DNA from: Candidatus Nomurabacteria bacterium
GTDB lineage: Bacteria > Patescibacteriota > Minisyncoccia > Phycocordibacterales > UBA9973
Assembly: GCA_943350875.1 (NCBI GenBank)
Contig: CALRAL010000003.1
Span: 25,174-89,173 of the forward strand
Reading direction: 5' to 3'
Length of the DNA stretch: 64,000 nucleotides
Part shown: piece by piece, positions 37,305 to 63,971 of the stretch
Layout of the letters: each line of letters starts with the position of its first letter
How positions within the stretch are numbered: position 1 is the stretch's first letter
Position numbers and translations under genes: made by a program
The notes under the pieces: model-generated
Databases searched by the model: none
The model's input: only the letters and a program-made list of their open reading frames with translations
What the model was told of the DNA's origin: nothing

Positions 37305-37351
37305 ACCGTTCTTGCTATAGGACATGACTTCAAGAACTTATCGATGAAACT

Positions 37352-37520
37352 GGATTAGATGTAAACGAAGCTCATGAACTCTGGCAAGAGTTTTAACTTT
37401 CATTCTATGAATTGCTAGGCAAGACCTAGCAATTACAATTAACAAGGCCCAGAATCAATCTACTTTACTAAACTAAAGTGTAGAATGTTTTTTTGATTCT
37501 GTAAATCGTCATAGTAATTT
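37352..37520 (+). repeat. Direct repeat copy B of the approximately 170-bp repeat, containing the GCTAGGCAAGACCTAGC hairpin
   Basis: See copy A. Its internal hairpin is identical to the rpsR terminator core at 57466-57482. Confidence 0.7.
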
Positions 37521-37536
37521 TAATATTTCAGAGAGC

Positions 37537-37830
37537 TTATGATTTAGTCTTGAATGGTCGTTTGTTTGCTTCTTTTAGAATTCTAAGTGTTGCTTGTACT
37601 GAAAGGTTCTCGCTGGTAAGAAGCACTAATCTATCATTCAACTGATTAAGTAATGGGCTTAAAAACTCATCTGCCCATGATGGCGACAATGTCAAAACAC
37701 CAGCGAAATCTATTTCTAGTTCTTCGTCTTTAGGAAACTCACGCAAGGTCGGAGTAAATGCTTTGAAAGCCTCACTGCCCAATTCTCGTGATATTAATGT
37801 CTTTCCAAATTTTTCTAATTGTAATTTCAT
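37537..37830 (-). CDS. STAS-like DUF4325-type small protein, the putative partner of the upstream GHKL ATPase
   Basis: 97 aa with an anti-sigma-antagonist-like fold signature (ELEIDFAGVLTLSPSWADEFL). It is immediately downstream of 37855..38610 on the same strand. Confidence 0.45.
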   Translation of the reverse strand: MKLQLEKFGKTLISRELGSEAFKAFTPTLREFPKDEELEIDFAGVLTLSPSWADEFLSPLLNQLNDRLVLLTSENLSVQATLRILKEANKRPFKTKS

Positions 37831-37854
37831 ATATTTTAAAAATTATTAAACTAC

Positions 37855-39710: not shown

Positions 39711-42700
39711 AGAAAATGTAAAAAATAATAAATCAGAAGTAGCTCTCAGGGAGGAGAGGGTTTTGGAATTTTGGGAGCAAAATAAAATATTTGAAAAAGT
39801 TTCAAAAAAGGTAGCGAAGAAGGGTGACTATGTATTTTATGACGGTCCGCCGACGGCCAACGGCATGCCGGGGCTACACCATGTGGAGCCACAATCTTTC
39901 AAGGATTTAATTCCTCGATACAAAACTATGCGAGGGTATAATGTCTTGCGTAAAGCGGGCTGGGATACACACGGGCTTCCAGTAGAGCTTCAAGTAGAAA
40001 AAGCGCTTGGGCTAAAATCTAAAAAAGATATTGAAAAATACGGAGTAGAACTTTTTAATCAGAAATGCAAAGAAAGTGTTTGGCAATATAAAGCAGAATG
40101 GATGAAAATGCGTACTCGCATGGGTTTCTGGACTGATCTGGAGAATGCATACGTAACTTATACGAATAATTATATTGAAGCCTTGTGGGGAGTAGTGCAA
40201 AAGGCAGATGAGAGAGGATTCTTGTATAAAGATTTCAAGATCTTGCCTTGGTGCCCTCGCTGTGGGACAGCTCTCTCTAGCCATGAGCTCAATCAGCCTG
40301 GGGCATACAAAGATGTAAAAGATCTGTCTGTTTATGTGAAATTTAAAATTATTGGTGGCAATGATGCTTTTGCGGGGTCGCTGTCTCCGTCTGTTGACGG
40401 AGCGCTGCCTCTCGGCTCGTCAGCCTGCGAGACACCCCGACAAAAGCACATTGCCACCAATTTTTACATTCTTGCTTGGACAACAACACCTTGGACTTTG
40501 CCGGGGAATGTGGCTTTGGCAGTGGGGAATGATATTGATTACGTAAAAGTGAAATTTGGTGGGGAGATTTTGATTTTAGCAGAGGCTAGACTTTCTGTTT
40601 TGGGTGGCGAATATGAAATTTTGGAAAAATTGAAAGGCAAAGATTTAATTGGTTTAGAATATGAACCACTTTTTCCATATTTGTCCGCCCAAGGCGGATC
40701 CGCCTCTGGCGGAAAAGATTTTAGTGAAAGTATAAAAAATGCTTTTAAAATTTATCCAGCAGACTTTGTGACGACCACAGACGGCACAGGAGTGGTGCAT
40801 ACAGCTGTGATGTATGGAGTGGATGATTTTGAGCTTGGAACTAAATTAAATTTACCGAAATATCATCTCGTAAATGAAGAAGGTAAATTTATAAAAGGTA
40901 CAGGATTCTTGGAGGGGCGATATGTTAAGGAAGCTGACGAGAATGGCAAGCCGACACTCGCTGTGGACATCATTGATGACTTAACCAAGCGTGGACTTTT
41001 GTTTAAAAAAGAAAATCACTTGCACAGCTATCCACATTGTTGGCGTTGTGATACACCACTTATTTATTACGCTCGGATGTCTTGGTATTTTAAGATGAGT
41101 GCGCTACGTAGCCAATTAATGGCTGGAAATGAAAAGATACATTGGGAGCCAGAACATATCAAACACGGACGTTTTGGTGAGTGGCTTGATGGTATAAAAG
41201 ACTGGGCCATTTCTCGGGACAGATATTGGGGTACACCGATACCAGTCTGGCAGAAAAAAGATGGCACATATAAAACTATCGGCTCACTTTCAGAACTAAA
41301 AAAATATACTAAAAAGTCAGGTAATAAGTATTTTGTCATGCGACATGGGGAAGCAGAAAATAATATGGGAGAATTATATAAAGTTGATCCGACTCAAAGT
41401 TTTAATCTTACTGAAAAAGGGTGTCAACAGGTTTTAGAAAATATTAAAAATTTTAAAGAAAAAGTAGATGTTATTATTTCTTCCCCATTTGAACGAACAA
41501 GAGAAACTACAAAAATAGTTTGTGAATTTTTAGGTTTTCCGTTAGATAAAGTTATTTATGATGATAGAGTGCAAGAGTGGGAAGTAAGCTCTATGTTTAA
41601 TGGTAAGACACGTAAAGAGATGAAACAATATTATGATAATGATTATATGTATGCTCCACACGAAAGTCTTGCTGATGCAGAAAGTTTTATCCATGTTGTA
41701 AAAAGAACTGGGGATTTCCTTTATGACATAGAATCTAAATATAAAGATAAAACTATTTTACTTGTTAGCCATGCTGGGGCAGGCAGGGCTATGACGTTTG
41801 TCTCGAATGGAGCTACTTTTACTGATTTACCAAATAGACCAGATATAACCAAGATGCTAGATAATGCAGAAATCAAAAAACTTGATTTCGTGCCACTTCC
41901 TCACAATCAAAATTATGAACTTGATTTTCATAAACCATATATTGATGAAATAATTTTAGAAGAAAACGGAGAACAAATGTCTCGCACACCGGAGGTGATG
42001 GATGTGTGGTTTGATTCAGGGGCTATGCCTTATGCACAGAGTCATGTGTTAGGTACTCCGATGGACTTCTCTCCAGCCAAGGCAGACTACATATCTGAAG
42101 CGATAGATCAGACTCGTGGATGGTTCTATACTTTGCATGCAGTTATAAATTTGGTAAATAATAAATCAAGTAATGCTTTTAAAAATGTTATTTGTCTCGG
42201 GCATATTTTGGATGCGAATGGGCAGAAAATGTCTAAATCAAAAGGCAATGTAGTGGACCCATGGATGATGTTTGATAAATACGGGGCGGACACCCTCCGC
42301 TTATGGATGTATTCTGTGAATCAGCCAGGGGAGTCAAAGAACTTTGACGAGAAAAATGTTTTGGAATTAAATAGACAAGTTTTTGGCTTGCTTTATAATA
42401 TTGTGGCTTTTTATGAGCTTTATCGGGATAAAGATTTAGAAATTATACAAGGACAGTCCTTAAGAGAGTTTCCCCAAGGACTGTCCTTTAAAAATATTTT
42501 AGATATTTGGATTCTTGCTAGATTAAACGAGTTGATAGAACTCACTACTAAAAATCTAGATAGTTTTAAACTTTTAGAGCCGACTCGAGCTATGAAAGAT
42601 TTTATAAATGATCTCTCTACATGGTATCTGCGTCGTTCTAGAGATAGATTAAAAGATGAAGATAAAAATGCAAAACTTACACTGTATTTTGTATTAAAAA

Positions 42701-43347
42701 ATCTGGCAAAACTTATGGCACCATTTGCTCCCTTTTCTGCGGAAGATATCTGGCAGAAATTGAAAAATGAGGAAGATGTAGAAAGTGTGCATTTGGTAGA
42801 TTGGCCAAAAGTGTCAAAGGGCATCTTTGACATGTTTAGCAAAAAAGAGGAGAAAGTCTTGAAAAATATGCAAATTGTGCGTGATATTGTTTCTCTTGGG
42901 CTTGAAGCGAGGCAGAAAGCGGGGATAAAAGTCCGTCAACCGCTCGCTACGCTCAAGTGTAAAGTAGAAAGTGGAAAGTTGTCGAGTGAATACTTGGAAC
43001 TTATTAAAGACGAGTTGAACGTAAAAGAAGTATTATTAGAGCCTCGAGCCTCGAACCTAGAAACTAATGTAGAACTCGATACAAGAATAACTCCAGAATT
43101 AAAATCTGAAGGAGATTATAGGGAGCTTGTGCGAGCAATACAGGATATGAGGAAAAAGATGGGGCTGACTCCGAGTGATGTGGTGTCTTTCTCCTTTGAC
43201 ACAAATGAAGAAGGAAAAAAGTTAATCCAGAATTTTGAAAAGGAACTAAAAAAAGTAATTCTTGCTTCAGAAATAAAATTCATGGCAAATGATGGCGACC
43301 CAATCGTTATAGATGAACTAATATTTAAAATAAAAGTGGTAAAATAA
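39682..43347 (+). CDS. ileS: Isoleucine--tRNA ligase with an inserted histidine-phosphatase (PGAM-like) domain and two short in-frame palindromic-element insertions
   Basis: 1221 aa with HVEPQ (HIGH-like), TTTPWTLPGN, HKPYIDE, KMSKSKGN and the anticodon-binding domain. The phosphatase insertion is bounded by FVMRHGEAENN...SSPFERTRET...LLVSHAG at about 41300-41925. Confidence 0.9.
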   Translation: MSIRKNYMNEENVKNNKSEVALREERVLEFWEQNKIFEKVSKKVAKKGDYVFYDGPPTANGMPGLHHVEPQSFKDLIPRYKTMRGYNVLRKAGWDTHGLPVELQVEKALGLKSKKDIEKYGVELFNQKCKESVWQYKAEWMKMRTRMGFWTDLENAYVTYTNNYIEALWGVVQKADERGFLYKDFKILPWCPRCGTALSSHELNQPGAYKDVKDLSVYVKFKIIGGNDAFAGSLSPSVDGALPLGSSACETPRQKHIATNFYILAWTTTPWTLPGNVALAVGNDIDYVKVKFGGEILILAEARLSVLGGEYEILEKLKGKDLIGLEYEPLFPYLSAQGGSASGGKDFSESIKNAFKIYPADFVTTTDGTGVVHTAVMYGVDDFELGTKLNLPKYHLVNEEGKFIKGTGFLEGRYVKEADENGKPTLAVDIIDDLTKRGLLFKKENHLHSYPHCWRCDTPLIYYARMSWYFKMSALRSQLMAGNEKIHWEPEHIKHGRFGEWLDGIKDWAISRDRYWGTPIPVWQKKDGTYKTIGSLSELKKYTKKSGNKYFVMRHGEAENNMGELYKVDPTQSFNLTEKGCQQVLENIKNFKEKVDVIISSPFERTRETTKIVCEFLGFPLDKVIYDDRVQEWEVSSMFNGKTRKEMKQYYDNDYMYAPHESLADAESFIHVVKRTGDFLYDIESKYKDKTILLVSHAGAGRAMTFVSNGATFTDLPNRPDITKMLDNAEIKKLDFVPLPHNQNYELDFHKPYIDEIILEENGEQMSRTPEVMDVWFDSGAMPYAQSHVLGTPMDFSPAKADYISEAIDQTRGWFYTLHAVINLVNNKSSNAFKNVICLGHILDANGQKMSKSKGNVVDPWMMFDKYGADTLRLWMYSVNQPGESKNFDEKNVLELNRQVFGLLYNIVAFYELYRDKDLEIIQGQSLREFPQGLSFKNILDIWILARLNELIELTTKNLDSFKLLEPTRAMKDFINDLSTWYLRRSRDRLKDEDKNAKLTLYFVLKNLAKLMAPFAPFSAEDIWQKLKNEEDVESVHLVDWPKVSKGIFDMFSKKEEKVLKNMQIVRDIVSLGLEARQKAGIKVRQPLATLKCKVESGKLSSEYLELIKDELNVKEVLLEPRASNLETNVELDTRITPELKSEGDYRELVRAIQDMRKKMGLTPSDVVSFSFDTNEEGKKLIQNFEKELKKVILASEIKFMANDGDPIVIDELIFKIKVVK
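40351..40460. repeat. MITE-like 110-bp GC-rich element with perfect 13-bp terminal inverted repeats (ATTGGTGGCAATG / CATTGCCACCAAT), in-frame in ileS just upstream of TTTPWTLP
   Basis: The terminal and nested inverted repeats (CTCCGTC/GACGGAG) are visible directly. It encodes IGGNDAFAGSLSPSVDGALPLGSSACETPRQKHIATN. Confidence 0.7.
40685..40717. repeat. Family-4 palindromic element (CCGCCCAAGGCGGATCCGCCTCTGGCGGAAAAG), in-frame in ileS
   Basis: It shares GGATCCGCCTTGGGCGGAAAA with the copies at 57605-57628 and 62428-62451 and encodes SAQGGSASGGKD. Confidence 0.7.
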
Positions 43348-52091: not shown

Positions 52092-53607
52092 TTTTTATAT
52101 TACCACTACTTTGCCTTATGTAAATGCTCCATTGCATTTAGGACACGCTACGGAGATAATACGTGCAGATACTATAGCTCGATTTAAAAAAATACAAGGT
52201 TTCGATGTGTTTTTTAATACTGGAACAGATGAACATGGGCAAAAAATTTATGAATCTGCAGAAAAGGCTGGTAAGGGAGTAAAAGAATATGTTGATTATT
52301 ATGCGGATTTATACAAGAGAACTTTAGAGAGGTTTGGTGTATTGTCAGATGTGCATTATATCCGGACGACAGATGAAAATCATACAAAAGCCGCAAAAGA
52401 ATTTTGGGCAAGATGTAAAGACAAGGGTTTTATATACAAAAAGAATTACCAGGCAAAGTATTGTGTTGGTTGCGAGGAAGAGAAAACTGAAAGTGAACTG
52501 GTTGATGGCAAATGCCCTGAACATGATAGGGTTCCGGATTTAATAAACGAAGAGAACTACTTTTTTAAATTTAGTGCTTTTACAGATAAATTAGAGAATT
52601 TCTATAAAGAAAATTCAGATTTTATCGTTCCTAATTATAGGATGAATGAGATGCGTGAGTTCATAAAACATGGACTCAATGATTTTAGTATTTCTCGCTT
52701 AAAATCAAAGATGTCTTGGGGTATAGATGTGCCGGGAGATGAAGATCATGTCATGTATGTCTGGTTTGATGCATTAACAAATTATATTTCTACATTAGGA
52801 TGGCCGGATAAAACTCCCCTCCTTATGGAGGAGGGGGTTGGGGGTGGTAATTCAAAAAATCACCACCTCGCCCTAAAGGGCTCTCCTCCTCAACAAGGAG
52901 GAGAGGAATCTCTATTTTCAAAGTACTGGATAAATGGTAATCCAACACAATATTGTGGTAAAAATAATACTCGTTTTCAAGGTCTTATGTGGCAGGCAAT
53001 GCTCTTGGCAGTAGATTTGCCATTAACACATCAGATTATCGTTGATGGTTTTATTTTAGGAGAAGGAGGTATAAAAATGTCTAAGACTCTTGGCAACACA
53101 ATAGATCCACTAGATTTAATACAAGAATATGGGACCGATGGACTCCGATATTTCGTATTACGAGATTTTCATTCTTTTGAGGATACCGCGGTTTCAAAAG
53201 ATAGGCTTAAAGAATCATATAATGCAAATCTGGCGAATGGGCTAGGGAATCTGACTAGTCGCATTTTGACTTTATCTGAGAAATATTTAGATAATGGAAT
53301 AAAAGAAACGAAATTTTCTATACCACAAGTAAATGATTTCTTAAATACTTTTGACATACAGCTTGCAATGAAAGTTATTTTTGATTTGATAAACGATTTG
53401 GATAAACAAATACAGAAAACAGAACCGTTCAAAGTTATAAAAGTGAATGAAGAAGAAGGAAAGAAATTAATTAAAAGTCATGTAAAGCAACTCCTTACCA
53501 TCGCGAAATCTTTAGCTCCATTTTTGCCTGAGACCTCAGAAAAAATAGTAGAACTTATTAAACAAAATAAAAAACCAGAAAAGCCCCTATTTTTAAGGAA
53601 AGAATAA
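52039..53607 (+). CDS. metG: Methionine--tRNA ligase with an in-frame family-2 GC-rich element insertion
   Basis: LHLGHA (HIGH) and KMSKT motifs. The insertion at 52813-52915 encodes DKTPLLMEEGVGGGNSKNHHLALKGSPPQQGGEESLF. Confidence 0.9.
   Translation: MMLKSIKVLLEQKMKKNSFYITTTLPYVNAPLHLGHATEIIRADTIARFKKIQGFDVFFNTGTDEHGQKIYESAEKAGKGVKEYVDYYADLYKRTLERFGVLSDVHYIRTTDENHTKAAKEFWARCKDKGFIYKKNYQAKYCVGCEEEKTESELVDGKCPEHDRVPDLINEENYFFKFSAFTDKLENFYKENSDFIVPNYRMNEMREFIKHGLNDFSISRLKSKMSWGIDVPGDEDHVMYVWFDALTNYISTLGWPDKTPLLMEEGVGGGNSKNHHLALKGSPPQQGGEESLFSKYWINGNPTQYCGKNNTRFQGLMWQAMLLAVDLPLTHQIIVDGFILGEGGIKMSKTLGNTIDPLDLIQEYGTDGLRYFVLRDFHSFEDTAVSKDRLKESYNANLANGLGNLTSRILTLSEKYLDNGIKETKFSIPQVNDFLNTFDIQLAMKVIFDLINDLDKQIQKTEPFKVIKVNEEEGKKLIKSHVKQLLTIAKSLAPFLPETSEKIVELIKQNKKPEKPLFLRKE
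52813..52915. repeat. Family-2 composite GC-rich hairpin element (CCCCTCC..GGAGGGG, GGTGGTAATT..AATCACCACC, GCCCTAAAGGGC, CTCCTCC..GGAGGAG), in-frame in metG
   Basis: Collinear with the intergenic copy at 60509-60655 and with the ftsK copy at 62891-62975. All three are read in frame. Confidence 0.8.
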
Positions 53608-53611
53608 ATTA

Positions 53612-53636
53612 CACAGGGTTCCCCTGTGTAATTTAT
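53612..53636. repeat. REP-like 24-bp palindrome TTACACAGGGTTCCCCTGTGTAAT, copy 1
   Basis: Identical palindromes occur at 54228-54252 and 54941-54965, flanking the RAYT gene. Confidence 0.8.
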
Positions 53637-53650
53637 ATAAGACTTACAAT

Positions 53651-54202
53651 TTAATTAGCTGTACAAAAAAACTCTCTTACGCACCAAACTTTTCCATCTA
53701 CAGGCTGACTTATCGATTCGCTAACAAAAGATTTTGGCATTCTATGGTTACCATATTTTAAATTAAAAGTGTCCATCATTTGTTGCACTTTACCTGATTG
53801 TTTAAGTTCTGTCTCTACATTATCATGAGCTATTTGAGGTGTTTCCCCAAACAAAAGTGTTCCTCGTCTATCGAAATAGTAATCAGCTTCTTCTTTTTTA
53901 GATTTAACAAAATTGCAATGCCAAGTAAATTTAAACTTACTTACTCCTGATTCTTTAATAACCTCGATTTTTACCAATGGATTTTGGACTTTTGAAGGAT
54001 ATTGTTTTTTTAAAGTGTCTCCAACTATTTTTGCAAATTCATTCCCACTTTTATGAGCTTCTGCTCCATTTGTAGATTCAAATGTATATTCATTATGTTC
54101 TCGAAAATTCTTATCACTAAACGCATCTAGTGAACCAAAGATCGCCGTTCCCGCTATAATTTTACTTGTTTGTTTTATAAAATTTCTTCGTGATTCATCC
54201 AT
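53651..54202 (-). CDS. Tat-signal secreted hypothetical protein, lying between REP copies
   Basis: 183 aa whose N-terminus SRRNFIKQTSKIIAGTAIFG is a twin-arginine motif. Confidence 0.45.
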   Translation of the reverse strand: MDESRRNFIKQTSKIIAGTAIFGSLDAFSDKNFREHNEYTFESTNGAEAHKSGNEFAKIVGDTLKKQYPSKVQNPLVKIEVIKESGVSKFKFTWHCNFVKSKKEEADYYFDRRGTLLFGETPQIAHDNVETELKQSGKVQQMMDTFNLKYGNHRMPKSFVSESISQPVDGKVWCVREFFCTAN

Positions 54203-54227
54203 CTTTAAATTATATCACAACGAAGGT

Positions 54228-54252
54228 TATACACAGGGTTCCCCTGTGTAAT
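54228..54252. repeat. REP-like palindrome, copy 2, at the 5' flank of the RAYT gene
   Basis: ACACAGGGTTCCCCTGTGTAAT. Confidence 0.8.
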
Positions 54253-54267
54253 GTGTGGTATATTACA

Positions 54268-54966
54268 GTAATGGAAAGAAAAATACCTTTTGTGAAAGGT
54301 GAATACTATCATATTTATAATCGTGGCGTAGAAAAGAGAATTATATTTAAGACAGATTTTGATTATAAAAGATTTATTCTTTTGTTGCATGTTTTGAATA
54401 CAGACAAAAATCTTAAAATAAGGGATTTACTCCGGTCTAGTTCTTTTAATGAATTGTTAAAAATAAAAAATGATAATCCTATTGTGGCGATTGGATCATA
54501 CTGCCTGATGCCAAATCATTTCCATCTACTTATTACTCCTTTGGTGGAGGGAGGTATTTCAAAATTTATGTTGAAATTAGAAACTGCGTATTCTATGTAT
54601 TTTAATGGAAAAAATGAACGAAGTGGTGCTTTATTTCAAGGTGTGTTTAAATCGCAACATCTAGACAATGATGAGTATTTAAGATACATATATTCTTATA
54701 TACACTTAAATCCAGCAAAATTAAAAGATAAAAATTGGAAAGAGAATAGACCCAAAGATTCTAGATCTTTAAAAGAATTTATTGTGAGTTATAAATATTC
54801 TAGTATTGGAGAATATATTAATAATAACTTTACTATAGTAAATATTTCAGTTTTTCCTGATTATAGAGAGTTATATAAATCTAATAAGGAATTTTTCAAG
54901 ATTATGATTGATGATTGGTTGAATTATAAGGAGATTACAACAATTACACAGGGGAACCCTGTGTAA
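54268..54966 (+). CDS. REP-associated tyrosine transposase (RAYT; IS200/IS605 TnpA-like HUH Y1 transposase)
   Basis: YHIYNRGVEKRIIF, the HUH motif LMPNHFHLLI and Tyr-containing YIYSYIHLNPAK. I placed the start at 54268 (MERKIPFVKGEYY), whereas the ORF track begins at 54190. It is flanked by identical REP hairpins. Confidence 0.7.
   Translation, partial: VMERKIPFVKGEYYHIYNRGVEKRIIFKTDFDYKRFILLLHVLNTDKNLKIRDLLRSSSFNELLKIKNDNPIVAIGSYCLMPNHFHLLITPLVEGGISKFMLKLETAYSMYFNGKNERSGALFQGVFKSQHLDNDEYLRYIYSYIHLNPAKLKDKNWKENRPKDSRSLKEFIVSYKYSSIGEYINNNFTIVNISVFPDYRELYKSNKEFFKIMIDDWLNYKEITTITQGNPV
54941..54965. repeat. REP-like palindrome, copy 3, in the reverse-complement orientation, at the 3' end of the RAYT gene
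   Basis: ATTACACAGGGGAACCCTGTGTAAT overlaps the last RAYT codons. Confidence 0.8.
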
Positions 54967-54977
54967 TTTAAGAGATT

Positions 54978-55817
54978 ATGCCAATATATATAGATATACA
55001 TAGTCATGTTAATTTCAAAGCTTTTGACGAAGACAGAGATACTGTCATCAAACGAGCTCTTGATAATGATACGTGGGTCATAAATGTAGGCACTCAAGTA
55101 GATACTTCAAGGAGTGCAGTAGAACTTGCAGATAAATACGAGGACGGGGTGTATGCTATCGTCGGTCTTCACCCGATACATACCAGTGCATCGTATCATG
55201 ATGAGCAAGAGTTGGGTGTTGGTGGTGTAGAATTTACTTCGCGTGGAGAAATTTTTGATAAAAACGTTTACAGAGAATTCTTAAAAGATCCAAAGGTAGT
55301 GGCGATAGGTGAGTGTGGGTTAGATTATTTTAGATGTACCCCTGAAACTATTTCAAAACAAAAAGAAGCCTTTATCGCGCAAATAGGACTTGCAAATGAA
55401 TTCAATAAGCCGTTGATGCTTCATATCCGTAATAATCCTAAAGACAAAACGAAAGATGCTTACAAAGATGCAATAGAAATTCTTAAGAAATATCCTACGG
55501 TTAGGGGCAATGTGCATTTTTTCGCTGGGATGCCAGAACATGCGAAAAGTTTCCTTGAGATTGGCTTTACACTTTCTTTTACCGGAGTGATAACTTTTAC
55601 CCATGATTATGATGAAGTAATTAAAAATACTCCGCTAGATATGATCATGTCTGAGACGGATTCCCCGTATGTTGCTCCTGTGCCATATAGGGGCAAAAGA
55701 AATGAGCCGGTGTATGTAAGTGAGGTGGTCAAAAAGATTGCTGAAATAAAAAATTTGCCAATAGACGAGGTTGCACAGGCGATAATAGCCAATGCAAAGC
55801 GAGTTTTTTGGATTTGA
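54978..55817 (+). CDS. tatD: TatD-family metal-dependent DNase/hydrolase
   Basis: IDIHSHVNF N-terminus and TIM-barrel TatD motifs. Confidence 0.85.
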   Translation: MPIYIDIHSHVNFKAFDEDRDTVIKRALDNDTWVINVGTQVDTSRSAVELADKYEDGVYAIVGLHPIHTSASYHDEQELGVGGVEFTSRGEIFDKNVYREFLKDPKVVAIGECGLDYFRCTPETISKQKEAFIAQIGLANEFNKPLMLHIRNNPKDKTKDAYKDAIEILKKYPTVRGNVHFFAGMPEHAKSFLEIGFTLSFTGVITFTHDYDEVIKNTPLDMIMSETDSPYVAPVPYRGKRNEPVYVSEVVKKIAEIKNLPIDEVAQAIIANAKRVFWI

Positions 55818-55943
55818 TTTCTTATACCTTTCTATGTTATAATACATTTGGTTCAGTGAGAAGAGGGTTTGTGTTCTCACCGGAGACTTTGGTCTTTGAA
55901 AACTTAAATTCACAATTTTTTTCAGGGAGTGAAAGACAGAAAT

Positions 55944-56087
55944 TATGCTGAAAAAATTCCTATATTTTGTTCTTGTATTTATAGGAGTAATGTGTTTACT
56001 TTACAGTATTCACTTACTCTATGCTTATAAAGAACAATCAGTAAAAAATACCCACCAGACTACTGTCGGTGGGTATTTTATTTTTTA
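55944..56087 (+). CDS. Possible small hydrophobic peptide (MLKKFLYFVLVFIGVMCLLYSIHLLYAYKEQSVKNTHQTTVGGYFIF)
   Basis: I translated it by hand. It ends in a hairpin plus T-run at 56044-56088. It is speculative. Confidence 0.15.
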
Positions 56088-56095
56088 GATTTAAA

Positions 56096-56190
56096 TTCTC
56101 CTCTTGAGGAGTACCTGCAGGGGGAGGTGGATGAATTCTTCCACCTCGTCTTTTGATTACAAAAGCCACCCCTCAAGAGGGGAATATGAA
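56096..56190. repeat. Cluster of GC-rich hairpins (CTCCTCTTGAGGAG; GAGGTGG..CCACCTC; CCCCTCAAGAGGGG) upstream of rpsF
   Basis: Same polypurine/polypyrimidine stem style as family 2. Confidence 0.5.
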
Positions 56191-56231
56191 AACAGTGGAC
56201 TTTTCCAAAACTTTTTGCTATTATCAATCCA

Positions 56232-56753
56232 ATGAAAGATTTAGGAGTTAAAAATGAAAATGACTCATTGGTAGATGAGAATGGTGTTTCGGACGCTCGG
56301 GTCTACGAAGTGGGGTACCTTTTGGTGCCTACTTTGGGCGAGGAAAACGTTCCTGCCATCTATGGCAACTTGAAAGAACTCGTGTCCTCTTTTGGTGGGG
56401 AGATGATCTCAGATGAAATGCCAAAGATGATAGATCTTGCCTACACTATGGAAAAAGTCACAGCAAATGTCCGCAGTAAATTCAACACTGCTTATTTTGG
56501 TTGGGTGAAATTCTACATAGACAGTCAGAAAGTTTTAGAATTAAAGAAAAAGCTCGCCCTCGATGCAAACATTATTCGTTTTTTGATAGTGAAGACTGTT
56601 AAAGAAAATACAATTGCTGCCAAGAGATTTGTGCATAGAGATACTTTTAAAAAGAGGACGCCTGTTATGAAAGAGGGTGCTGAAAATGAAGAAGTAGTGC
56701 CTATAAACAAAGAAGAGATAGATAAAGAAATAGATGCGATGGTAGCTGTTTAA
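56232..56753 (+). CDS. rpsF: 30S ribosomal protein S6, with terminal extensions
   Basis: The S6 core VYEVGYLLVP...LAYTMEK. It is followed by ssb and rpsR in the conserved order. Confidence 0.7.
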   Translation: MKDLGVKNENDSLVDENGVSDARVYEVGYLLVPTLGEENVPAIYGNLKELVSSFGGEMISDEMPKMIDLAYTMEKVTANVRSKFNTAYFGWVKFYIDSQKVLELKKKLALDANIIRFLIVKTVKENTIAAKRFVHRDTFKKRTPVMKEGAENEEVVPINKEEIDKEIDAMVAV

Positions 56754-56775
56754 TTATCATTTAACCAATCAAATT

Positions 56776-57231
56776 ATGTATTTAAACAAAGCAATTGTAA
56801 TAGGGAACTTAACTCGTGATCCAGAATTAAAGTCTTTGCCTTCTGGTATCAAAGTATGTTCTTTTTCTTTAGCTACAAATCGTGTTTGGAAAGATAAGAA
56901 TGGTGCTCGCCAAGAATCTGCTGATTATCACAATGTGGTAGTATTTGGACGCCAAGCCGAGACAGTCGCTCAGTATATGAAAAAGGGAAGCTCAATGATG
57001 GTAGAAGGCAGGATGCAGACTAGGAGCTGGGATGATAAAAACAGTGGTGAGAAGAAATACCGCACCGAGATAGTAGCAGAGAAAACACAGTTTGGTCCAA
57101 AAAGTGCTGGTTCTACAGGTGGATCATCGATGTCATCTCCTAAAACACCGACAGTAGATGTGGCAGGTGGGGAAGTAGATACCATAGAATACCCAGAAGA
57201 GGACATTAACCCAGAAGATATACCATTTTAA
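56776..57231 (+). CDS. ssb: Single-stranded DNA-binding protein
   Basis: OB-fold N-terminus NKAIVIGNLTRDPEL, with an acidic C-terminal tip DIPF. Confidence 0.9.
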   Translation: MYLNKAIVIGNLTRDPELKSLPSGIKVCSFSLATNRVWKDKNGARQESADYHNVVVFGRQAETVAQYMKKGSSMMVEGRMQTRSWDDKNSGEKKYRTEIVAEKTQFGPKSAGSTGGSSMSSPKTPTVDVAGGEVDTIEYPEEDINPEDIPF

Positions 57232-57249
57232 TAAAATTTTAATAAATAT

Positions 57250-57450
57250 ATGAAACAAGATTATTTTTCAGCCAACAACATAAAACACATAGATTACAAA
57301 GATATTGAGATCTTAAGTAAATTCATCAACCCAAATGGCAAGATTTTAAGCCACAAGAAGACTGGGGTGACAGCTAAAAACCAGCGTCAACTCTCAGGAG
57401 CCATCAAAAACGCTCGTTTTATGGGCCTTTTGCCTTTCGTAGCGAAGTAG
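57250..57450 (+). CDS. rpsR: 30S ribosomal protein S18
   Basis: IDYKDIEILSKFI...RQLSGAIKNARFMGLLPF. Confidence 0.85.
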   Translation: MKQDYFSANNIKHIDYKDIEILSKFINPNGKILSHKKTGVTAKNQRQLSGAIKNARFMGLLPFVAK

Positions 57451-57456
57451 TTTAGT

Positions 57457-57491
57457 GTCAAAGTTGCTAGGCAAGACCTAGCAACTTTGAC
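57457..57491 (+). terminator. Rho-independent terminator with a perfect 15-bp stem (GTCAAAGTTGCTAGG-CAAGA-CCTAGCAACTTTGAC) plus T-rich tail
   Basis: Immediately 3' of rpsR. The core GCTAGGCAAGACCTAGC recurs at 37405 and, in variant form, at 38699 and 59830. Confidence 0.7.
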
Positions 57492-57527
57492 TTTATATGT
57501 TAATAACTTTGCCTTTACTTCTCGCGC

Positions 57528-57538
57528 GGGGGGGGGGG
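57528..57538. repeat. Homopolymeric G11 tract upstream of a surface-protein gene
   Basis: GGGGGGGGGGG sits in an AT-rich intergenic region about 95 bp upstream of the ATG at 57632. Confidence 0.8.
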
Positions 57539-57604
57539 TTATACTTACCTTATGCTTAAAAGGTGTATCTTTTTGAGCTTTAAAATTAACTTATTTCAGC
57601 CATA

Positions 57605-57628
57605 GGCTGATCCGCCTTGGGCGGAAAA
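57605..57628. repeat. Family-4 palindromic element (GGCTGATCCGCCTTGGGCGGAAAA) immediately upstream of the 57632 start codon
   Basis: Matches 62428-62451 in ftsK and 40685-40717 in ileS. Confidence 0.7.
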
Positions 57629-59770
57629 ATTATGAAAAAATATATAGGAATTTTGTTTGTTTTGAGTTTTTTGATTGCCTCACCGAGTTTTGTTTTCGCT
57701 GCTCAGGATGGAGATCTTGATCCAGCCGATGTCGGAGCGAGTTGTGCCGATATTACTCATGACTTGCGTTATAGGATGCGAGATACTGCTACTAATGATG
57801 ACATTGCTGTCTTGCAAGATTTCTTGAATAGTAATGGATATACGACTGTATCTCCAGCTGGATTCTTCGGAACTTCTACCTTGAAAGCGGTTAAAAAGTT
57901 TCAGTCTGCCAATGGTTTGCGTCAAACTGGTTTCGTTGGTCCTAAAACTCGTGCCAAAATAAAAGCGATTGATTGTGGAGATGTAATTGTTCCCCCTGTT
58001 GCCGGTGCTCCTTGTATTTCTATAAATAGTCCATTAGCTAATTCGCAAGTTGCTCTTCCTTTTACTGTGAGAGGTGTATTTAATGATGACAGAAGTGAAA
58101 GACCTACAGGGTGTTCAATGTGGAAATTCTTTGAAGGACAGGCTGGGACAGCTAAATTACATTACAAGAATAATGGCTCTTGGTTTTCTCTAGGTGGAGT
58201 AAAAGTTATTCCAGTTTCTGATTGGATGTCATCAGGACCAAAATCTTTTTCTGTGATTATGGATTTGAAGGGTGGTAGTGGTGTTGACGCCATGTATTCA
58301 TTCAAAGACGGTATGCCATTGGAGGTTGTATTTCAAGAAGAAGATCCTTCGGGCATGGGTCATGGTAAAGCTTTTACATTACCACTTGTATATAAATCTA
58401 CAGTCACTCCTCCTACCACCCCATCCATTACAGTCCTTTCTCCAAATGGAGGGGAGACATATACAGCGGGACAACAGATTATGGTGAAATGGAACAGTTC
58501 AAATATTACATATCCAGTTTCAATTTATCTAGATAAAGTACCTGTAGGATATATTCCATCTTTTAGTAATGTAATATCTAGAGTTACTTTAGTTTCTAGT
58601 ACACCTAATGATGGACAAGAACAAATTACATTACCAAATTCTTCTGATTGGTTTTCTGGTCAAAAGCAATATGCTGTGACTGTATCTCCAGTAGAGTCAT
58701 CAGGTCTTGATGTTGCTGATATTTCTAATAATTCATTTACAATCAACGCCCCATCTTCCACCAATCCTCCCGTTATTGATGGCGTCTCTGGACCTTCAAC
58801 ATTAAACACAGGTGCGACAGGTACTTGGACAGTCACAGCTCACGATTCAAATGCTGGTAATTTGTCATACTCTGTAGTCTGGGGTGATGAAGGTTCTAAG
58901 AGAGCTATGGCTTCTTCTACCACATCTCAAACAGCTACATTTACACATGTTTACAGTACTGCTGGGAATTATGTTCCTACCTTTACAGTCACAAACATGA
59001 CAACCAATCAGAGTGCTACTACTAGTTTGAGTGTAAATGTGACAGCTACAACTCCTTCTCTATCTGTAGTTTTGTCTAGAAATACAGCTTATATAAATCA
59101 GAGTTTCTATACTAACAGTACTCATAAAAAAATTGCTTCATTTACAATACAAGCTGGAGGTTCTCAAGGTGTTCATGTAAACAATTTTCAGATGGATTTT
59201 TCTGGATATAATCCAGGAAGTATTGCTCCTACAGGTATTTCTAACTTAGGCATATATTCAAATGGTGTTCAGCTTGGTTCAACTATTGCTACTGTCCTTA
59301 CTATCAATAATGTCCCAATGAACTTCAATATAGTTGCTGGCAATACTTCTGTTATTGATGTTTATGCTGATTTAGGATCTTCAGCTGGTTCCTTGATAGT
59401 ACCATTAAATGCAAGTGGAATTGGTCTCGTATCTGGAACTACTTTCTCTACCCAGACAATGAATGGTCAAACAATCACTGTGAAGATTCCAACCCCTCCT
59501 CAAATATTTGGTGTCTCTGGTCCTTCATCGTTAGGTCCAAATCAAATGGGAACTTGGACAGTATCATCTCATGATAATAATACTGGTACTTTGCAATATG
59601 CCGTAAATTGGGGTGAATCAGATCCAAATTATTATCCACAATCAACTTCTGTTTTTACTCATGCTTATAAAACTGTGGGGACATATACAGCTACATATAT
59701 TGTCACGAATACTGCAACAGGTCAGTACACACAAAAGACATTTAGTACAAAAATCAGTTTAATTAATTAA
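57617..59770 (+). CDS. Secreted cell-surface protein with a peptidoglycan-binding (PG_binding_1) domain and tandem PKD/Ig-like domains
   Basis: Signal peptide MKKYIGILFVLSFLIASPSFVFA, so the likely true start is 57632. The PG-binding motif is LQDFLNSNGYTTVSPAGFFGTSTLKAVKKFQSANGL. The repeated PKD-like blocks are TGTWTVTAHDSNAGNLSYSVVWGDEGS and MGTWTVSSHDNNTGTLQYAVNWGESD. Confidence 0.6.
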   Translation: MGGKIMKKYIGILFVLSFLIASPSFVFAAQDGDLDPADVGASCADITHDLRYRMRDTATNDDIAVLQDFLNSNGYTTVSPAGFFGTSTLKAVKKFQSANGLRQTGFVGPKTRAKIKAIDCGDVIVPPVAGAPCISINSPLANSQVALPFTVRGVFNDDRSERPTGCSMWKFFEGQAGTAKLHYKNNGSWFSLGGVKVIPVSDWMSSGPKSFSVIMDLKGGSGVDAMYSFKDGMPLEVVFQEEDPSGMGHGKAFTLPLVYKSTVTPPTTPSITVLSPNGGETYTAGQQIMVKWNSSNITYPVSIYLDKVPVGYIPSFSNVISRVTLVSSTPNDGQEQITLPNSSDWFSGQKQYAVTVSPVESSGLDVADISNNSFTINAPSSTNPPVIDGVSGPSTLNTGATGTWTVTAHDSNAGNLSYSVVWGDEGSKRAMASSTTSQTATFTHVYSTAGNYVPTFTVTNMTTNQSATTSLSVNVTATTPSLSVVLSRNTAYINQSFYTNSTHKKIASFTIQAGGSQGVHVNNFQMDFSGYNPGSIAPTGISNLGIYSNGVQLGSTIATVLTINNVPMNFNIVAGNTSVIDVYADLGSSAGSLIVPLNASGIGLVSGTTFSTQTMNGQTITVKIPTPPQIFGVSGPSSLGPNQMGTWTVSSHDNNTGTLQYAVNWGESDPNYYPQSTSVFTHAYKTVGTYTATYIVTNTATGQYTQKTFSTKISLIN

Positions 59771-59810
59771 ATATTATTAATATCAAGGACTACCCTTGAT
59801 ATTAATACAA

Positions 59811-59886
59811 AAATCCCTAAGGTTAGCCTAGGGATTTTGCGTTAGGTCTTGCCTAACGCACAAATACACAGGCGTTGCCTGTGTAT
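59811..59886 (+). terminator. Three consecutive GC-rich hairpins (CCCTAAGG..CCTAGGG; GCGTTAGGTCTTGCCTAACGC; GCACAAATACACAGGCGTTGCCTGTGTATTTGTGC) between the convergent PKD-protein gene and efp
   Basis: Stems seen directly. The third resembles the REP palindrome TACACAGG..CCTGTGTA. They are probably bidirectional terminators and REP-like elements. Confidence 0.55.
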
Positions 59887-59895
59887 TTGTGCTAA

Positions 59896-60474
59896 TTACA
59901 CTCGCTCCACATATTCTCCAGTTTCTGTGTTGATGCGGATAGTGTCGCCTTCGGCGACGAACATCGGAGCGTTGATAGTGGTGCCATTTTCAAGGGTTAT
60001 GACTTTTATTCCACCTTTGGATGTGTCTCCACGGACTGCAGGAGGAGCTTCTTTGACTTTGAATTCCATTTTGATAGGCAGATCCACACTGATATTCACT
60101 TCTTCGCCGTCATTGTCCCAGACTAGGACTGTGGTGTTGCTATTTTGTTTCAAGAATTTTGCTGCAGTACCGATGAGTGATGCGTCTAGTTTGAATCTGT
60201 TTGCTTTGTCATTTGGATCGCAGAACCAATATTCTCCACGGTTAGCGTATAAGAATGTGACTTCGCGTTTCTGTATATCTGCTTCATCGGCAGAGTCTGC
60301 GACGTGAAAAGTAGCAGGGAAGACCTTACCAGATATTAAGCTTTTTAATTTGACCTGATTTTGAGGCTTCCTTTGTTGGGTACGAGCGACATGCGACTCC
60401 ACCACCATGCATGGCTCATCATTATGAATTATAATTTTTTTTTCTCTGATTTCAGAGTATTGTAATTGAGACAT
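59896..60474 (-). CDS. efp: Elongation factor P
   Basis: 192 aa with the three-domain EF-P pattern. The loop sequence is divergent from the canonical KPGKG. Confidence 0.8.
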   Translation of the reverse strand: MSQLQYSEIREKKIIIHNDEPCMVVESHVARTQQRKPQNQVKLKSLISGKVFPATFHVADSADEADIQKREVTFLYANRGEYWFCDPNDKANRFKLDASLIGTAAKFLKQNSNTTVLVWDNDGEEVNISVDLPIKMEFKVKEAPPAVRGDTSKGGIKVITLENGTTINAPMFVAEGDTIRINTETGEYVERV

Positions 60475-60508: not shown

Positions 60509-60655
60509 CCCCCTAAATCCCCCTTGTCAGGGGGACTTTCTATTTTTCCTCCCCTCCTTAATCAAGGAGGGGAATGAGGGGTGGTAATTAAGAAATTTAA
60601 TAAATCACCACCTCGCCCTAAAGGGCACTCCTCCTCCACAAGGAGGAGATGATCC
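60509..60655. repeat. Family-2 composite GC-rich hairpin element, intergenic copy between efp and recA
   Basis: Its modules are CCCCTTGTCAGGGGG; CCCCTCCTTAATCAAGGAGGGG; GGTGGTAATTAAG...ATCACCACC; GCCCTAAAGGGC; and CTCCTCCTCCACAAGGAGGAG. It is collinear with the metG in-frame copy. Confidence 0.8.
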
Positions 60656-62168: not shown

Positions 62169-63971
62169 TTATTGCATTATATTATTTCCAGATTCATCGT
62201 GTTCTATTTTTTGTAATACTTCCCTTGGTTTTGCTCCATCGCCAGGGCCTATCACTTCGCGTTCTTCGAGTTGGTCCATGAGTCGGGCTGCTCTAGCGTA
62301 GCCCAGCTTTAATTTCCTTTGTAAATACGAAGTAGATGCCTTGCCAGCTTCTATGACACAAGCTCGAGCTTCTTCATACATTTCATCATCTGATTCATTA
62401 TTTTCATCTAAGTTTTCCCAGCCAAAGGCTGGTCCGCCTTGGGCGGAAAATATCGATTTGTCAGCTGAGATACTTCCGTTACTGAGTGATATCTCTTCTG
62501 TTATTTCATCTCGATATTTATCTGCCAAATACTTGACCACTTTCTTTACTTCATTTTCAGAAATAAAGGCAGACTGGAGTCTTTCTGGTTGAGCTTCTCC
62601 CGAAGAGTAGAGCATGTCTCCAGCTCCGAGGAGCTTTTCTGCTCCGCCGGTGTCAAGTATAGTGCGAGAATCTATTTGGGAAGACACTTTTAGAGCGATG
62701 CGGGCAGGGATGTTGGCCTTGATGAGTCCAGTAATGACGTTTACCTCTGGGCGTTGAGTGGAAAGTATGAGGTGTATGCCCACAGCTCGAGACATTTGAG
62801 CCAGGCGCACGATAGCGGACTCGAGCTCTCTAGGATAGGAGCTCATTATATCTGCCAATTCATCCAATATTATGACTATATATGGCAAACGATCACCACC
62901 CCCTGCTCCCTCCTCCACAAAGAGGGGGTCTGAGTTTCCCCGCCTCGATGAGGAGGGGACGGAAGGGGTGGTCTTTCCCCATACATTATTGTGATAACTT
63001 TCTATATCTCGTACTGATTCCGCTTCCAAGATGTCATAACGGCGATCCATTTCTTTGGCCGCCCATTTAAGGGCGAGTATTGCCTTTTTGGCTTCAGTTA
63101 TGACAGGGGTGAGTAAGTGAGGGATCTTGTTATAAAGGGTGAGTTCTACTCGTTTTGGATCTATCATTATTAATTTCAAATCATCTGGACTATTTCTGTA
63201 TAACAAGGATGTGATGATAGCGTGTATTGAGACAGATTTTCCAGAGCCAGTAGTTCCTGCGATGAGAACGTGTGGCATCTTGGCCAAGTTCCCAAAGCTG
63301 GCTCTGCCAGATATTCCACGCCCGAGCGCAATAGTGAGTGGTTTAGTAGAATTTTGGAATTTCTCATCGGAAAGGAGAGTAGCGAGGCCCACGGTTGATT
63401 TTACTTTATTTGGGATTTCGATACCTACGAGGGATTTGCCAGGAATTGGTGCTTCTATGCGGATAGGGTGTGCGGCTAGGGCTAGGGCGAGGTCACTTTG
63501 AAGTCCGACTATGCGGGAGAGTTTCACTCCTTCGGCTGGTTTTAGCGCATACCTCGTCACTGTGGGGCCAATGGTTATCTCATCCATCTCGACTTCGATA
63601 CCGAAGTTCTGTAAGGTACGTTTTATTATATTTGCATTTGCTTTTATGTCTCCAGTATTTGGTTTGCCTTGATCGCCTTCGAGGAGGGAGAGTGGGGGAG
63701 GTGTATAAGCTGAAAATAGTCCAGACTTTATTTTTTTAATCGGCATCTCATCTTCTTCCTCTGTTTTTTCTTCTTTTTTATTTTTTCCTACACCTAATGC
63801 TTTTTTAATTTTTTCTCCTGTTGTCTCATTTCCCTCCTCCCCTGACAAGGGGAGGAAAGAGGAGGGGTTATTTACCCCCTCTGCTTCCGGTATCTCCCCC
63901 GAGGCCGAGGGCGAAATGTATCCATTTTTTTTCTTCCAAATCATCCCCCACACTTTTTTCAAAAATGGCAT
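62169..63971 (-). CDS. ftsK: DNA translocase FtsK/SpoIIIE with three in-frame palindromic-element insertions
   Basis: Walker A GTTGSGKSVSI, the motor domain, and a C-terminal gamma winged-helix. Insertions lie at 62428-62451, 62891-62975 and 63826-63895. Confidence 0.9.
   Translation of the reverse strand: MPFLKKVWGMIWKKKNGYISPSASGEIPEAEGVNNPSSFLPLSGEEGNETTGEKIKKALGVGKNKKEEKTEEEDEMPIKKIKSGLFSAYTPPPLSLLEGDQGKPNTGDIKANANIIKRTLQNFGIEVEMDEITIGPTVTRYALKPAEGVKLSRIVGLQSDLALALAAHPIRIEAPIPGKSLVGIEIPNKVKSTVGLATLLSDEKFQNSTKPLTIALGRGISGRASFGNLAKMPHVLIAGTTGSGKSVSIHAIITSLLYRNSPDDLKLIMIDPKRVELTLYNKIPHLLTPVITEAKKAILALKWAAKEMDRRYDILEAESVRDIESYHNNVWGKTTPSVPSSSRRGNSDPLFVEEGAGGGDRLPYIVIILDELADIMSSYPRELESAIVRLAQMSRAVGIHLILSTQRPEVNVITGLIKANIPARIALKVSSQIDSRTILDTGGAEKLLGAGDMLYSSGEAQPERLQSAFISENEVKKVVKYLADKYRDEITEEISLSNGSISADKSIFSAQGGPAFGWENLDENNESDDEMYEEARACVIEAGKASTSYLQRKLKLGYARAARLMDQLEEREVIGPGDGAKPREVLQKIEHDESGNNIMQ
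62428..62451. repeat. Family-4 palindromic element, in-frame in ftsK
   Basis: GGCTGGTCCGCCTTGGGCGGAAAA encodes, on the minus strand, FSAQGGPAFGW. Confidence 0.7.
62891..62975. repeat. Family-2 GC-rich hairpin element, in-frame in ftsK
   Basis: ACCACCCC...GGGGTGGT outer stem with inner CCCTCC/GGAGGG stems. It encodes ...PLFVEEGAGGGD. Compare the metG insertion PLLMEEGVGGGN. Confidence 0.75.
63826..63895. repeat. Family-2-type GC-rich nested hairpin (CCCTCCTC-CCCTGACAAGGGG-AGGAAA-GAGGAGGG), in-frame near the ftsK 5' end
   Basis: Encodes NNPSSFLPLSGEEGNE. It shares the CCCCTGACAAGGGG module with 60524-60538. Confidence 0.65.

Follow-up and report, generated by a model that had tools for sequence, protein, structure and literature searches.

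A RAYT-like Y1 HUH transposase gene flanked by cognate hairpins in a Candidatus Nomurabacteria genome: a long-resident, probably domesticated unit

A 231-aa open reading frame (ORF) lies between metG and tatD in a 64,000-nt stretch of a Candidatus Nomurabacteria genome (contig CALRAL010000003.1, positions 25,174 to 89,173; hereafter the window), and its sequence identifies it as an intact class-2 (Y---NP) Y1 HUH enzyme resembling the REP-associated tyrosine transposases (RAYTs; REP, repetitive extragenic palindrome). We consider it likely that this gene and its two cognate hairpins form a long-resident, probably domesticated unit, similar to a REPtron or TIRtron (TIR, terminal inverted repeat), of a bacterium of the Candidate Phyla Radiation (CPR). 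What is known of RAYT/REP systems comes almost entirely from Proteobacteria and a few other cultured phyla, and a REPtron is said to be a RAYT gene flanked by REPs or bacterial interspersed mosaic elements (BIMEs) (Nunvar 2010; Ton-Hoang 2012). Our literature search found no paper describing a RAYT/REP system in the CPR. The hairpin-flanked, RAYT-like arrangement is of a known kind, found here in a new bacterial group, a large CPR clade.

An intact Y1 HUH transposase gene bracketed by a palindrome

The RAYT start codon was placed at ATG 54271 (MERK...) and not at the listed GTG 54190, because all homologs begin ME/QRK. The encoded protein matched Pfam Y1_Tnp with 33.6 bits (gathering score 23), and its sole NCBIfam match was REP_Tyr_transpos (NF047646, the equivalog for RAYTs of proteobacterial type; 38.2 bits, E 1.2e-9), whose cut-off of 80 was not reached. 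The HUH motif is N82-H83-F84-H85, with H83-F84-H85 encoded at 54517-54525, and the presumed catalytic tyrosine is Y143 (54697-54699) in Y143-I-H-L-N147-P148. Class 2 TnpAY1 proteins, which include the RAYTs, have Y---NP and a HuH-to-Y spacing of about 58-67 aa (Quentin et al. 2018, PMC6006769); the window protein has the HUH motif, Y---NP and a spacing of 60 aa. Among 37 homologs H83, H85, Y143 and N147 are invariant and P148 nearly so (at least 90%), and further invariant or nearly invariant blocks are the N-terminal YH-YNRG, F122-Q123 (LFQG) and Y176-S177-S178. All three RAYT motifs quoted in a first-pass annotation of this DNA (YHIYNRG, NHFH and YIHLNP) were found, in mostly invariant columns of this alignment. 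The invariance of the HUH and tyrosine residues argues that the cleavage chemistry is retained.

The predicted fold is RAYT-like. An AlphaFold model built with the homolog alignment (A1) reached a pLDDT (predicted local distance difference test) of 81, with tail residues 221-231 disordered, and a single-sequence model reached only 39. In the PDB, Foldseek matched the alignment-based model best to 4er8_A (E 7e-6; target-normalised TM 0.64), the structure of E. coli TnpAREP with a bound REP hairpin, and the TnpA structures of IS608, ISDra2 and IS200 ranked behind it (E about 1e-3 to 1e-2). A PDB search by sequence with the single protein found 4er8 at E 0.32 and otherwise spurious PrgX matches.

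A putative extended -10 box was read upstream of the gene. With an end 6 nt before the ATG, the box points to a possibly leaderless RAYT transcript, and a TGnTATAAT-like box recurs at the same distance from the ATG upstream of the homologs compared. A simple sigma-70 scan in which a -35 hexamer was required did not report the box at 54256-54264.

The palindromes were located by searching the window for the 24-mer TTACACAGGGTTCCCCTGTGTAAT with up to 3 mismatches. Three copies were found, against no match in 100 dinucleotide-preserving shuffles (Table 1). They can be written TACACAGGG-TTC/GAA-CCCTGTGTA, with a loop of 3 nt (TTC or GAA) and a perfect stem of 9-15 bp. The order at the locus is metG, copy 1, a 183-aa ORF on the minus strand, copy 2, RAYT, copy 3, tatD. 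Folded as single-stranded DNA (ssDNA), the three copies have energies of -8.6 to -13.9 kcal/mol, or up to -18.4 when a diverged relative at 59858-59892 is included, with z of -3.4 to -8.3 against shuffles.

Copy 1 is the third palindrome that had been announced after metG, and it is indeed an exact copy directly past the metG stop codon. Its arms are perfect over 15 bp, its extended form begins within that stop codon, and it folds at -13.9 kcal/mol (z -7.8). It is terminator-like on the minus strand, i.e. 3' of the 183-aa ORF, and the same hairpin stands immediately past metG at orthologous loci. Copy 2 precedes the RAYT start codon by 19 nt and the divergent 183-aa ORF by 27 nt; its position, about 20-40 nt 5' of the ATG, is that of the hairpin in every ortholog and distant homolog examined. 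Copy 3 covers the RAYT stop codon and encodes the last 7 RAYT codons (TQGNPV-stop), and the tatD start follows 12 nt past 54966 (10 nt past 54968). The C-termini ...TQG[NS]PV of many homologs are encoded by the same hairpin. The earlier description of a RAYT bracketed by perfect REP copies therefore needs adjusting in its detail: the copies are real and not due to chance, but the 5' copy agrees in 23 of 24 bases and the 3' copy, though exact, is inverted.

Table 1. Features at and near the RAYT locus, in positions of the window
Feature	Coordinates	Strand	Sequence or form	Basis
RAYT-like Y1 HUH transposase gene, 231 aa	54271-54966	+		Pfam Y1_Tnp, invariant motif columns, predicted fold
Putative extended -10 box	54256-54264	+	TGgTATATT	read from sequence; ends 6 nt 5' of ATG
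183-aa ORF	53651-54202	-	N-terminal MDESRRNFIK (SRRNFIK twin-arginine-like)	ORF list
Hairpin copy 1	core 53609-53632; 53604-53636 with arms extended		TTACACAGGG-TTC-CCCTGTGTAAT (core)	exact 24-mer match; inverted repeat I7
Hairpin copy 2	54229-54252	+	ATACACAGGG-TTC-CCCTGTGTAAT	23/24 bases; mismatch is first base, A for T
Hairpin copy 3	54943-54966; 54942-54968 including extended arms	-	GAA loop on + strand, 12-bp arms	exact 24-mer, inverted
Diverged hairpin relative	59858-59892		GCACAAATACACAGGC-GTT-GCCTGTGTATTTGTGC	looser pattern search; family D4, 72% identity; inverted repeat I6
Second hairpin of RAYT-cognate type	59775-59807		..TATCAAGG-ACTAC-CCTTGATA..	-10.9 kcal/mol, z -7.2

Hairpin and enzyme diverge together across a large family

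The closest named homologs of the RAYT belong to Candidatus Nomurabacteria and other Parcubacteria metagenome-assembled genomes (MAGs). The family is large, with more than 7,700 close matches, and when 1.84 billion cluster representatives were searched with a profile, 864 matches (50%-identity clusters) fell below 1e-30 and 10,360 below 1e-10. The nearest plasmid relatives in cultured bacteria share 24-41% identity over 34-71% of the protein and are uninformative for subclass placement.

At the hairpin loci, RAYT orthologs have one hairpin 20-40 nt 5' of the ATG and again one over the stop codon. Five distant homologs (46-56% identity), fetched by protein, sit in unrelated neighbourhoods and show the same architecture with different outer stems: GTAGCAAGGG (L053), ATACCAAGGG (L055), CCCCGAGGG (L057), AGACCAAGGG (L060) and CTGAGCAAGGG (L063). 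A metagenome match, L047, carries ATATCGAGGG. Within one genome the 5' and 3' hairpins match each other, and between clades the outer stem covaries. A gene bracketed by its cognate palindrome, the hallmark of a REPtron, was thus seen in the window and at all homolog loci examined.

The covariation was quantified on an ungapped alignment of 21 distinct hairpins (A2), for which the best local palindrome of each site was used. All of them share the inner A-G-G/C-C-T, at least 90% have the innermost G-C pair, and changes on both sides occur in 8 of the 12 stem pairs. Of the cells, 91.7% are paired where shuffles reach 68%, and covariation scores 0.575, versus at most 0.17 with the partner column slid. 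As a control, the same 8-nt arm was found at both ends of 18 of the 29 RAYT-overlapping ORFs versus 2 of the 354 other ORFs (at least 150 aa) at the same loci. Enzyme and hairpin diverge together, and each enzyme is paired with one stem sequence. The loop is probably not read by the enzyme, because its orientation (TTC/GAA; CTA/TAG) swaps freely between orthologs.

The REPtron reading of the first-pass annotation stands in so far as a class-2 Y1 HUH enzyme and cognate flanking hairpins are found family-wide; it is weakened in that the palindrome is not dispersed and the NF047646 cut-off was missed.

The unit is a long-term resident between metG and tatD

The identical protein was found on contigs of a single organism, each of them covering this locus. 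About 10 distinct lineages retain the order pepM16-AI2E-metG-...-RAYT-tatD-rpsF-ssb-...-efp-recA, in which the RAYT orthologs (66-81% identity overall) occupy the position metG-[variable gene]-RAYT-tatD. Identity to the window proteins at the syntenic loci is 72-78% for RAYT, 65-77% for tatD, 74-79% for efp, 74-83% for ssb, 57-69% for rpsF, 46-61% for metG and 86-90% for recA. The RAYT values are on a par with those of tatD, efp and ssb, which argues for purifying selection at housekeeping level and for residence at this site since the lineages split. Each protein cluster is present on few contigs, the window's protein always at the same locus, and no second RAYT copy was found in the window and 17 kb of extensions (about 81 kb). 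Relatives at 46-66% identity lie at unrelated loci, one of them adjoining conjugation-type genes (PrgI, TraC-like). A domesticated RAYT is characterised by single copy, vertical inheritance and housekeeping-like conservation (Bertels et al. 2017, PMC5581495); synteny and housekeeping-like conservation were seen here in about 10 lineages, with the distant relatives at other loci. We conclude that the unit is long-resident in the metG-tatD clade and is not an IS200/IS605 element. The recently active dynamics suggested by the first-pass annotation are contradicted locally by the kept synteny and the housekeeping-level conservation.

An autonomous IS200-like insertion sequence (IS) of about 740 bp (hairpin-tnpA-hairpin), selfish and lodged by chance between metG and tatD, seems an unlikely explanation. 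At 738 bp, the unit at 54229-54966 resembles IS200 in size and in layout, with a hairpin on either side of a single Y1 gene, but it occupies one site in lineages with metG identities of only 46-61%, and its protein equals tatD, efp and ssb in conservation. The homologs at unrelated loci, including the one near PrgI/TraC-like genes, and one MAG in which metG-hairpin-tatD and the gene are on separate contigs would be expected of a mobile element, as would membership in Bertels group 1, the most IS-like RAYT group (PMC5581495); against these stand the lack of a second copy in about 81 kb and the confinement of each cluster to few contigs, all at the same locus. Moreover, the motifs are Y---NP and NHFH, where IS200 subclass 1.1 has Y---Q and DH[VI]H (PMC6006769), and the predicted fold is nearer to TnpAREP than to IS608/IS200 TnpA. 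A TnpB gene, which had been named as a neighbour that would speak against a RAYT, was looked for beside the gene and none was present, the neighbours being metG, the 183-aa ORF and tatD.

The slot that separates metG from the 5' hairpin varies by species. It holds the ORF with the Tat motif in the window, a ceramidase-like gene in L015, L027, L042 and L044 (L015 2562-3218) and an HD-domain gene in L016 and L037 (L016 1344-1934), and it is empty in L007, L010 and L018, which suggests a local hot spot for gene turnover. The claim of a Tat-signal protein gene between REP copies is borne out in part: an ORF lies there whose motif fits on visual inspection, without backing from any Pfam or NCBIfam model. 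Only 10 homologs of the 183-aa ORF were found, and the three looked up sit at unrelated loci. We considered this gene as a hairpin-bounded mobile cassette and found the idea unsupported, as its homologs in three other genomes are at unrelated loci and not bracketed by palindromes; one of the three loci has a single similar hairpin downstream.

Copies of the hairpin away from the transposase gene

GTDB genomes and JGI metagenomes were scanned for the exact 21-mer TACACAGGGTTCCCCTGTGTA only, and the counts refer to this form. It was found at 14 GTDB loci and 35 metagenome loci, all CPR, with 1-4 exact copies per GTDB MAG; about half of the loci have a RAYT ortholog and about half are away from any RAYT gene. 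Solo intergenic copies with an identical 19-21-nt core, often extended by an A-run and a T-run, occur at L008, L012, L019, L039, L045 and L049, and the extended ones probably also serve as bidirectional terminators.

Other solo copies are found inside genes. In-frame copies occupy the same place in miaA (...ITQGSPVY...) at L009, L017, L024, L041, L043, L051 and L052, whose MiaA proteins are 51-73% identical, and in rplC (...NTQGNPVY...) at L004, L030, L032 and L040. Against E. coli MiaA, the miaA hairpin may have brought little net change in length, an indication on which we place no weight. Copies in a Pif1-type helicase gene (L013, L035, L046 and L050) are in a different reading frame from those in miaA and rplC. 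The L3 protein with the hairpin (207 aa) is confined to two close sequences, and the rplC hairpin was thus acquired in that lineage, since the nearest L3 orthologs (at most 86% identity; 203 aa, FR-TEGEP-TFKVGD) are without it. The idea of the first-pass annotation that the RAYT may drive in-gene palindromes is favoured in one respect, in that the RAYT's own hairpin is inside miaA, rplC and the Pif1 gene, though in other CPR genomes. At L057 283-702 (also L058 and L059), near a RAYT homolog, the L3 gene was called at 139 aa and its N-terminal 96 residues cannot be aligned to the L3 of L004; this rplC may be interrupted or divergent.

In MAG CAYGDR01 a site without the RAYT gene was observed (L011 4287-4340, contig 14), consisting of the metG stop, a single hairpin, 15 nt and the tatD start, and the same MAG carries a RAYT gene with hairpin elsewhere (L005, contig 18). 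The metG-hairpin-tatD site looks like a deletion between the flanking hairpins or an unoccupied site.

The hairpin is identical base for base across species whose housekeeping proteins are at about 50-75% identity. This exact conservation, together with the copies in miaA, rplC and the Pif1 gene, suggests selection at the DNA level or homogenisation in very small genomes.

These copies also bear on a purely regulatory explanation, to which we give little credence, namely that the enzyme no longer moves DNA, the palindromes act mainly as a terminator of metG and the neighbouring genes and as an operator for autoregulation, staying identical through binding by one protein, and the solo copies were recruited for host function. 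Copy 1 is terminator-like and many intergenic solo copies have A-run and T-run extensions, but terminators need no identity between species nor between the 5' and 3' ends of a gene, and copies inside rplC, miaA and the Pif1 helicase gene cannot be terminators. The 5' hairpin stands directly upstream of the TGnTATAAT box, and base-for-base conservation and the miaA copy at the same codon position (at 51-73% identity) fit selection on a binding site; on the other hand, the catalytic HUH and tyrosine residues are invariant, and a new rplC hairpin in one lineage needs a copying mechanism.

Other palindromes in the window

Two further hairpins of RAYT-cognate type are found in the window. The relative that had been placed at 59858-59880 is real, with coordinates corrected to 59858-59892; it is a 35-nt perfect palindrome with 16-bp arms and a GTT loop (-18.4 kcal/mol), with a core ACACAGGC-GTT-GCCTGTGT at 59866-59884, and its innermost pair is swapped versus the conserved AGGG/CCCT core of the family. 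The hairpin at 59775-59807 is one compensatory pair from TATCGAGGACTACCCTCGATA, which stands beside a 46%-identical RAYT homolog in L047, and it resembles the L063 hairpin. No gene matching it was found in the window. As it is of the L047 type, more than one RAYT-hairpin lineage has passed through the genome. Both belong to a row of four different hairpins at 59771-59895, a BIME-like cluster between a convergent PKD-domain gene and efp.

The window as a whole has 19 short perfect hairpins containing G+C, versus 1-7 in ten Markov shuffles, and 7 of the 19 are inside long ORFs. One group lies in a metG insert at 52816-52905, in frame, of about 55 aa and with four short G+C-rich hairpins; metG orthologs are without the insert, and their tblastn alignments are interrupted at about residues 239-295. 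A 59-nt part of the insert recurs with 92% identity at 60594-60652, in the intergenic region upstream of recA (family D9). The first-pass annotation was right that the in-gene families differ from the RAYT-flanking palindrome, as they lack both its AGGG-NNN-CCCT core and its 3-nt loop, and for the same reason its proposal that the RAYT is the engine of the in-gene palindromes finds no link.

That the RAYT also mobilises the window's other in-ORF palindromes, e.g. the four-hairpin metG insert, is accordingly very improbable. The enrichment in hairpins, with 7 of 19 inside ORFs, would invite such an idea, and the intergenic recurrence of part of the metG insert argues that these elements are moved by some agent; in other genomes genes do contain the RAYT's own hairpin, and the hairpin at 59775-59807 is a second one of RAYT type, with no matching gene in the window. 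However, the other families lack the core and loop of the RAYT hairpin, and the pairing of each family enzyme with one specific stem argues for narrow specificity.

Several further repeats were recorded in the window. The D1 family comprises four 42-nt double hairpins (25029-25070, 40675-40716, 57587-57628 and 62409-62450; e.g. CAGCCATAGGCTG-ATCCGCCTTGGGCGGA), two of the four just 5' of gene starts. Within ORF 39682-43347, paired palindromes AAGGACAGTCCTT ... AAGGACTGTCCTT, 27 nt apart, occur at 42449-42488, and the same paired type is found in another gene of the same genome (L070 12541-12580). Direct repeats of 95-97% identity at 36957-37081 and 37364-37493, about 410 nt apart (families D8, D14 and D17), lie within a 1.3-kb stretch without a long ORF (36514-37855). 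An Rfam search of 53300-60100 found no family at the hairpins. It gave a weak full-length IS605-orfB-I match at 57454-57639 on the plus strand (23 bits versus gathering 94, E 0.077), intergenic before the PKD-domain gene and overlapping two strong hairpins, which is probably due to chance.

Putative mechanism and significance

By analogy with TnpAREP bound to REP (4er8) and with IS608 TnpA, the enzyme would bind its hairpin extruded as ssDNA, e.g. at replication forks, and would cut and rejoin at the hairpin foot via Y143, with H83 and H85 holding the metal ion. Occasional, rare copying or moving of the hairpin or of a hairpin-bounded segment may follow, and this would account for the solo hairpins, the gene turnover by the 5' hairpin, the gene-less metG-hairpin-tatD site and relocation over the long term. 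The 3' arm of the 5' hairpin is at the -35 position, upstream of the TGnTATAAT box, so that the enzyme may repress its own, putatively leaderless transcript.

Several points weigh against reading the unit as a domesticated REPtron- or TIRtron-like one. Every mechanistic step rests on analogy, and a PDB search with the family profile found no solved structure. The picking of best local palindromes inflates the pairing figures, and covariation of perfect palindromes fits a duplex site for a dimeric protein and an ssDNA hairpin equally well. The metG-hairpin-tatD site comes from a co-assembled MAG, in which mis-binning is possible. The palindrome had been expected to recur elsewhere in the genome, but about 81 kb (the window and two extensions) contain three copies only, all at the RAYT locus, with no dispersed exact copy and one diverged relative. 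The conserved 5' tetranucleotide recognised by RAYTs had likewise been proposed as a check; positions outside the stem were compared across the family, they are variable A/T, and no tag of GTAG/CGTC type was found at the hairpin foot, GTAG occurring only within the stem of the L053/L054 variant. The hairpin system is therefore not a classical REP system. Finally, the assignment to subclass 2.1 is by motifs only, and that subclass has been reported without REPs.

A bolder proposal, which we regard as a long shot, is that the CPR enzyme has been domesticated to keep exact hairpins as genome landmarks (terminators, an operator and sites in essential genes), re-copying or homogenising them, with the flanks of the unit serving as a recombination hot spot for gene swaps. 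The changing gene content of the slot beside metG and the gene-less hairpin site of one MAG would fit this proposal. If this were true, thousands of covarying enzyme/hairpin pairs would form a readable recognition code for Y1 HUH enzymes.

Returning to the long-resident, probably domesticated unit, the gene in the window was correctly identified by the first-pass annotation; it is not an active repeat generator in the window, and the other in-gene palindromes should not be attributed to it. The value of the locus is in the family-wide covariation of enzyme and hairpin, the exact conservation of the hairpin and the in-frame copies in housekeeping genes, and not in repeat dynamics in the window. 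The CPR family, with a cognate hairpin at both ends of the gene and a stem that changes with the protein, is a natural data set for hairpin reading by Y1 HUH enzymes, and it extends the hairpin association to proteins with the signature of a subclass reported to be without REPs.

Comparison with known systems

The unit resembles the E. coli REPtron (TnpAREP; subclass 2.2, Bertels group 2) in having a Y---NP Y1 HUH gene bracketed by cognate hairpins, in its single copy in the DNA examined, in giving the closest PDB fold match, and in probable vertical inheritance with housekeeping-like conservation (PMC5581495). It differs in that its palindromes are perfect over 10 bp with a 3-nt loop and lack the GTAG/CGTC tag, and, unlike the tens to hundreds of hairpins that go with a REPtron, the roughly 81 kb examined contain just 3 hairpins, all clustered, and related MAGs no more than 4 exact ones each. 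The protein itself differs from the E. coli RAYT (231 aa versus about 165, NHFH and FQ versus DHLH and WE) and is below the NCBIfam equivalog cut-off.

With IS200 the unit shares its length of about 0.7 kb, a single Y1 transposase gene, a hairpin at each end and the HUH/Y1 fold family. Unlike IS200/IS605 elements, it has Y---NP and NHFH in place of Y---Q and DH[VI]H, no TnpB gene, no multiple near-identical copies that we could see, and a chromosomal position conserved across species.

Rickettsia palindromic elements are palindromic repeats inside coding regions. As with these elements and with intragenic REPs (Di Nocera 2013), a short palindrome is tolerated in frame in housekeeping genes of related genomes; unlike other intragenic palindromes, it is only about 21 bp long, has exactly the sequence of the hairpin on the flanks of a Y1 transposase gene, and is present in few genes, none of them in the window.

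Subclass 2.1 proteins have the signature NH[YF]H, FQ, Y[IV]HLNP and an SS tail at about 238 aa, are equated with Bertels group 1 and have been suggested to correspond probably to the TIR-associated tyrosine transposases (TIRYTs), and no REP-like structures were reported beside their genes (PMC6006769). With NHFH, LFQG, YIHLNP, Y176-S177-S178 and 231 aa, the window protein would be placed in subclass 2.1/Bertels group 1 by its motifs, although in the CPR family, unlike the subclass as reported, a hairpin pair is the rule. The flanks of a TIRtron are low-copy repeats at fixed distances, which can extend over the gene's 3' end and can be self-complementary; the TIR consensus is GGGGWSAS, and the REP super-families are GTAG and CGTC (Di Nocera 2013, PMC3733652). 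The hairpin GGGGAACC does not fit GGGGWSAS, and no Pfam helix-turn-helix-type C-terminal domain was detected in the 231-aa protein, unlike a TIRYT, but the flanks are likewise low-copy and overlap the gene's 3' end, and dispersed copies are few or absent. Among published systems, the description that comes closest is that of a TIRtron with self-complementary, low-copy flanks (PMC3733652).

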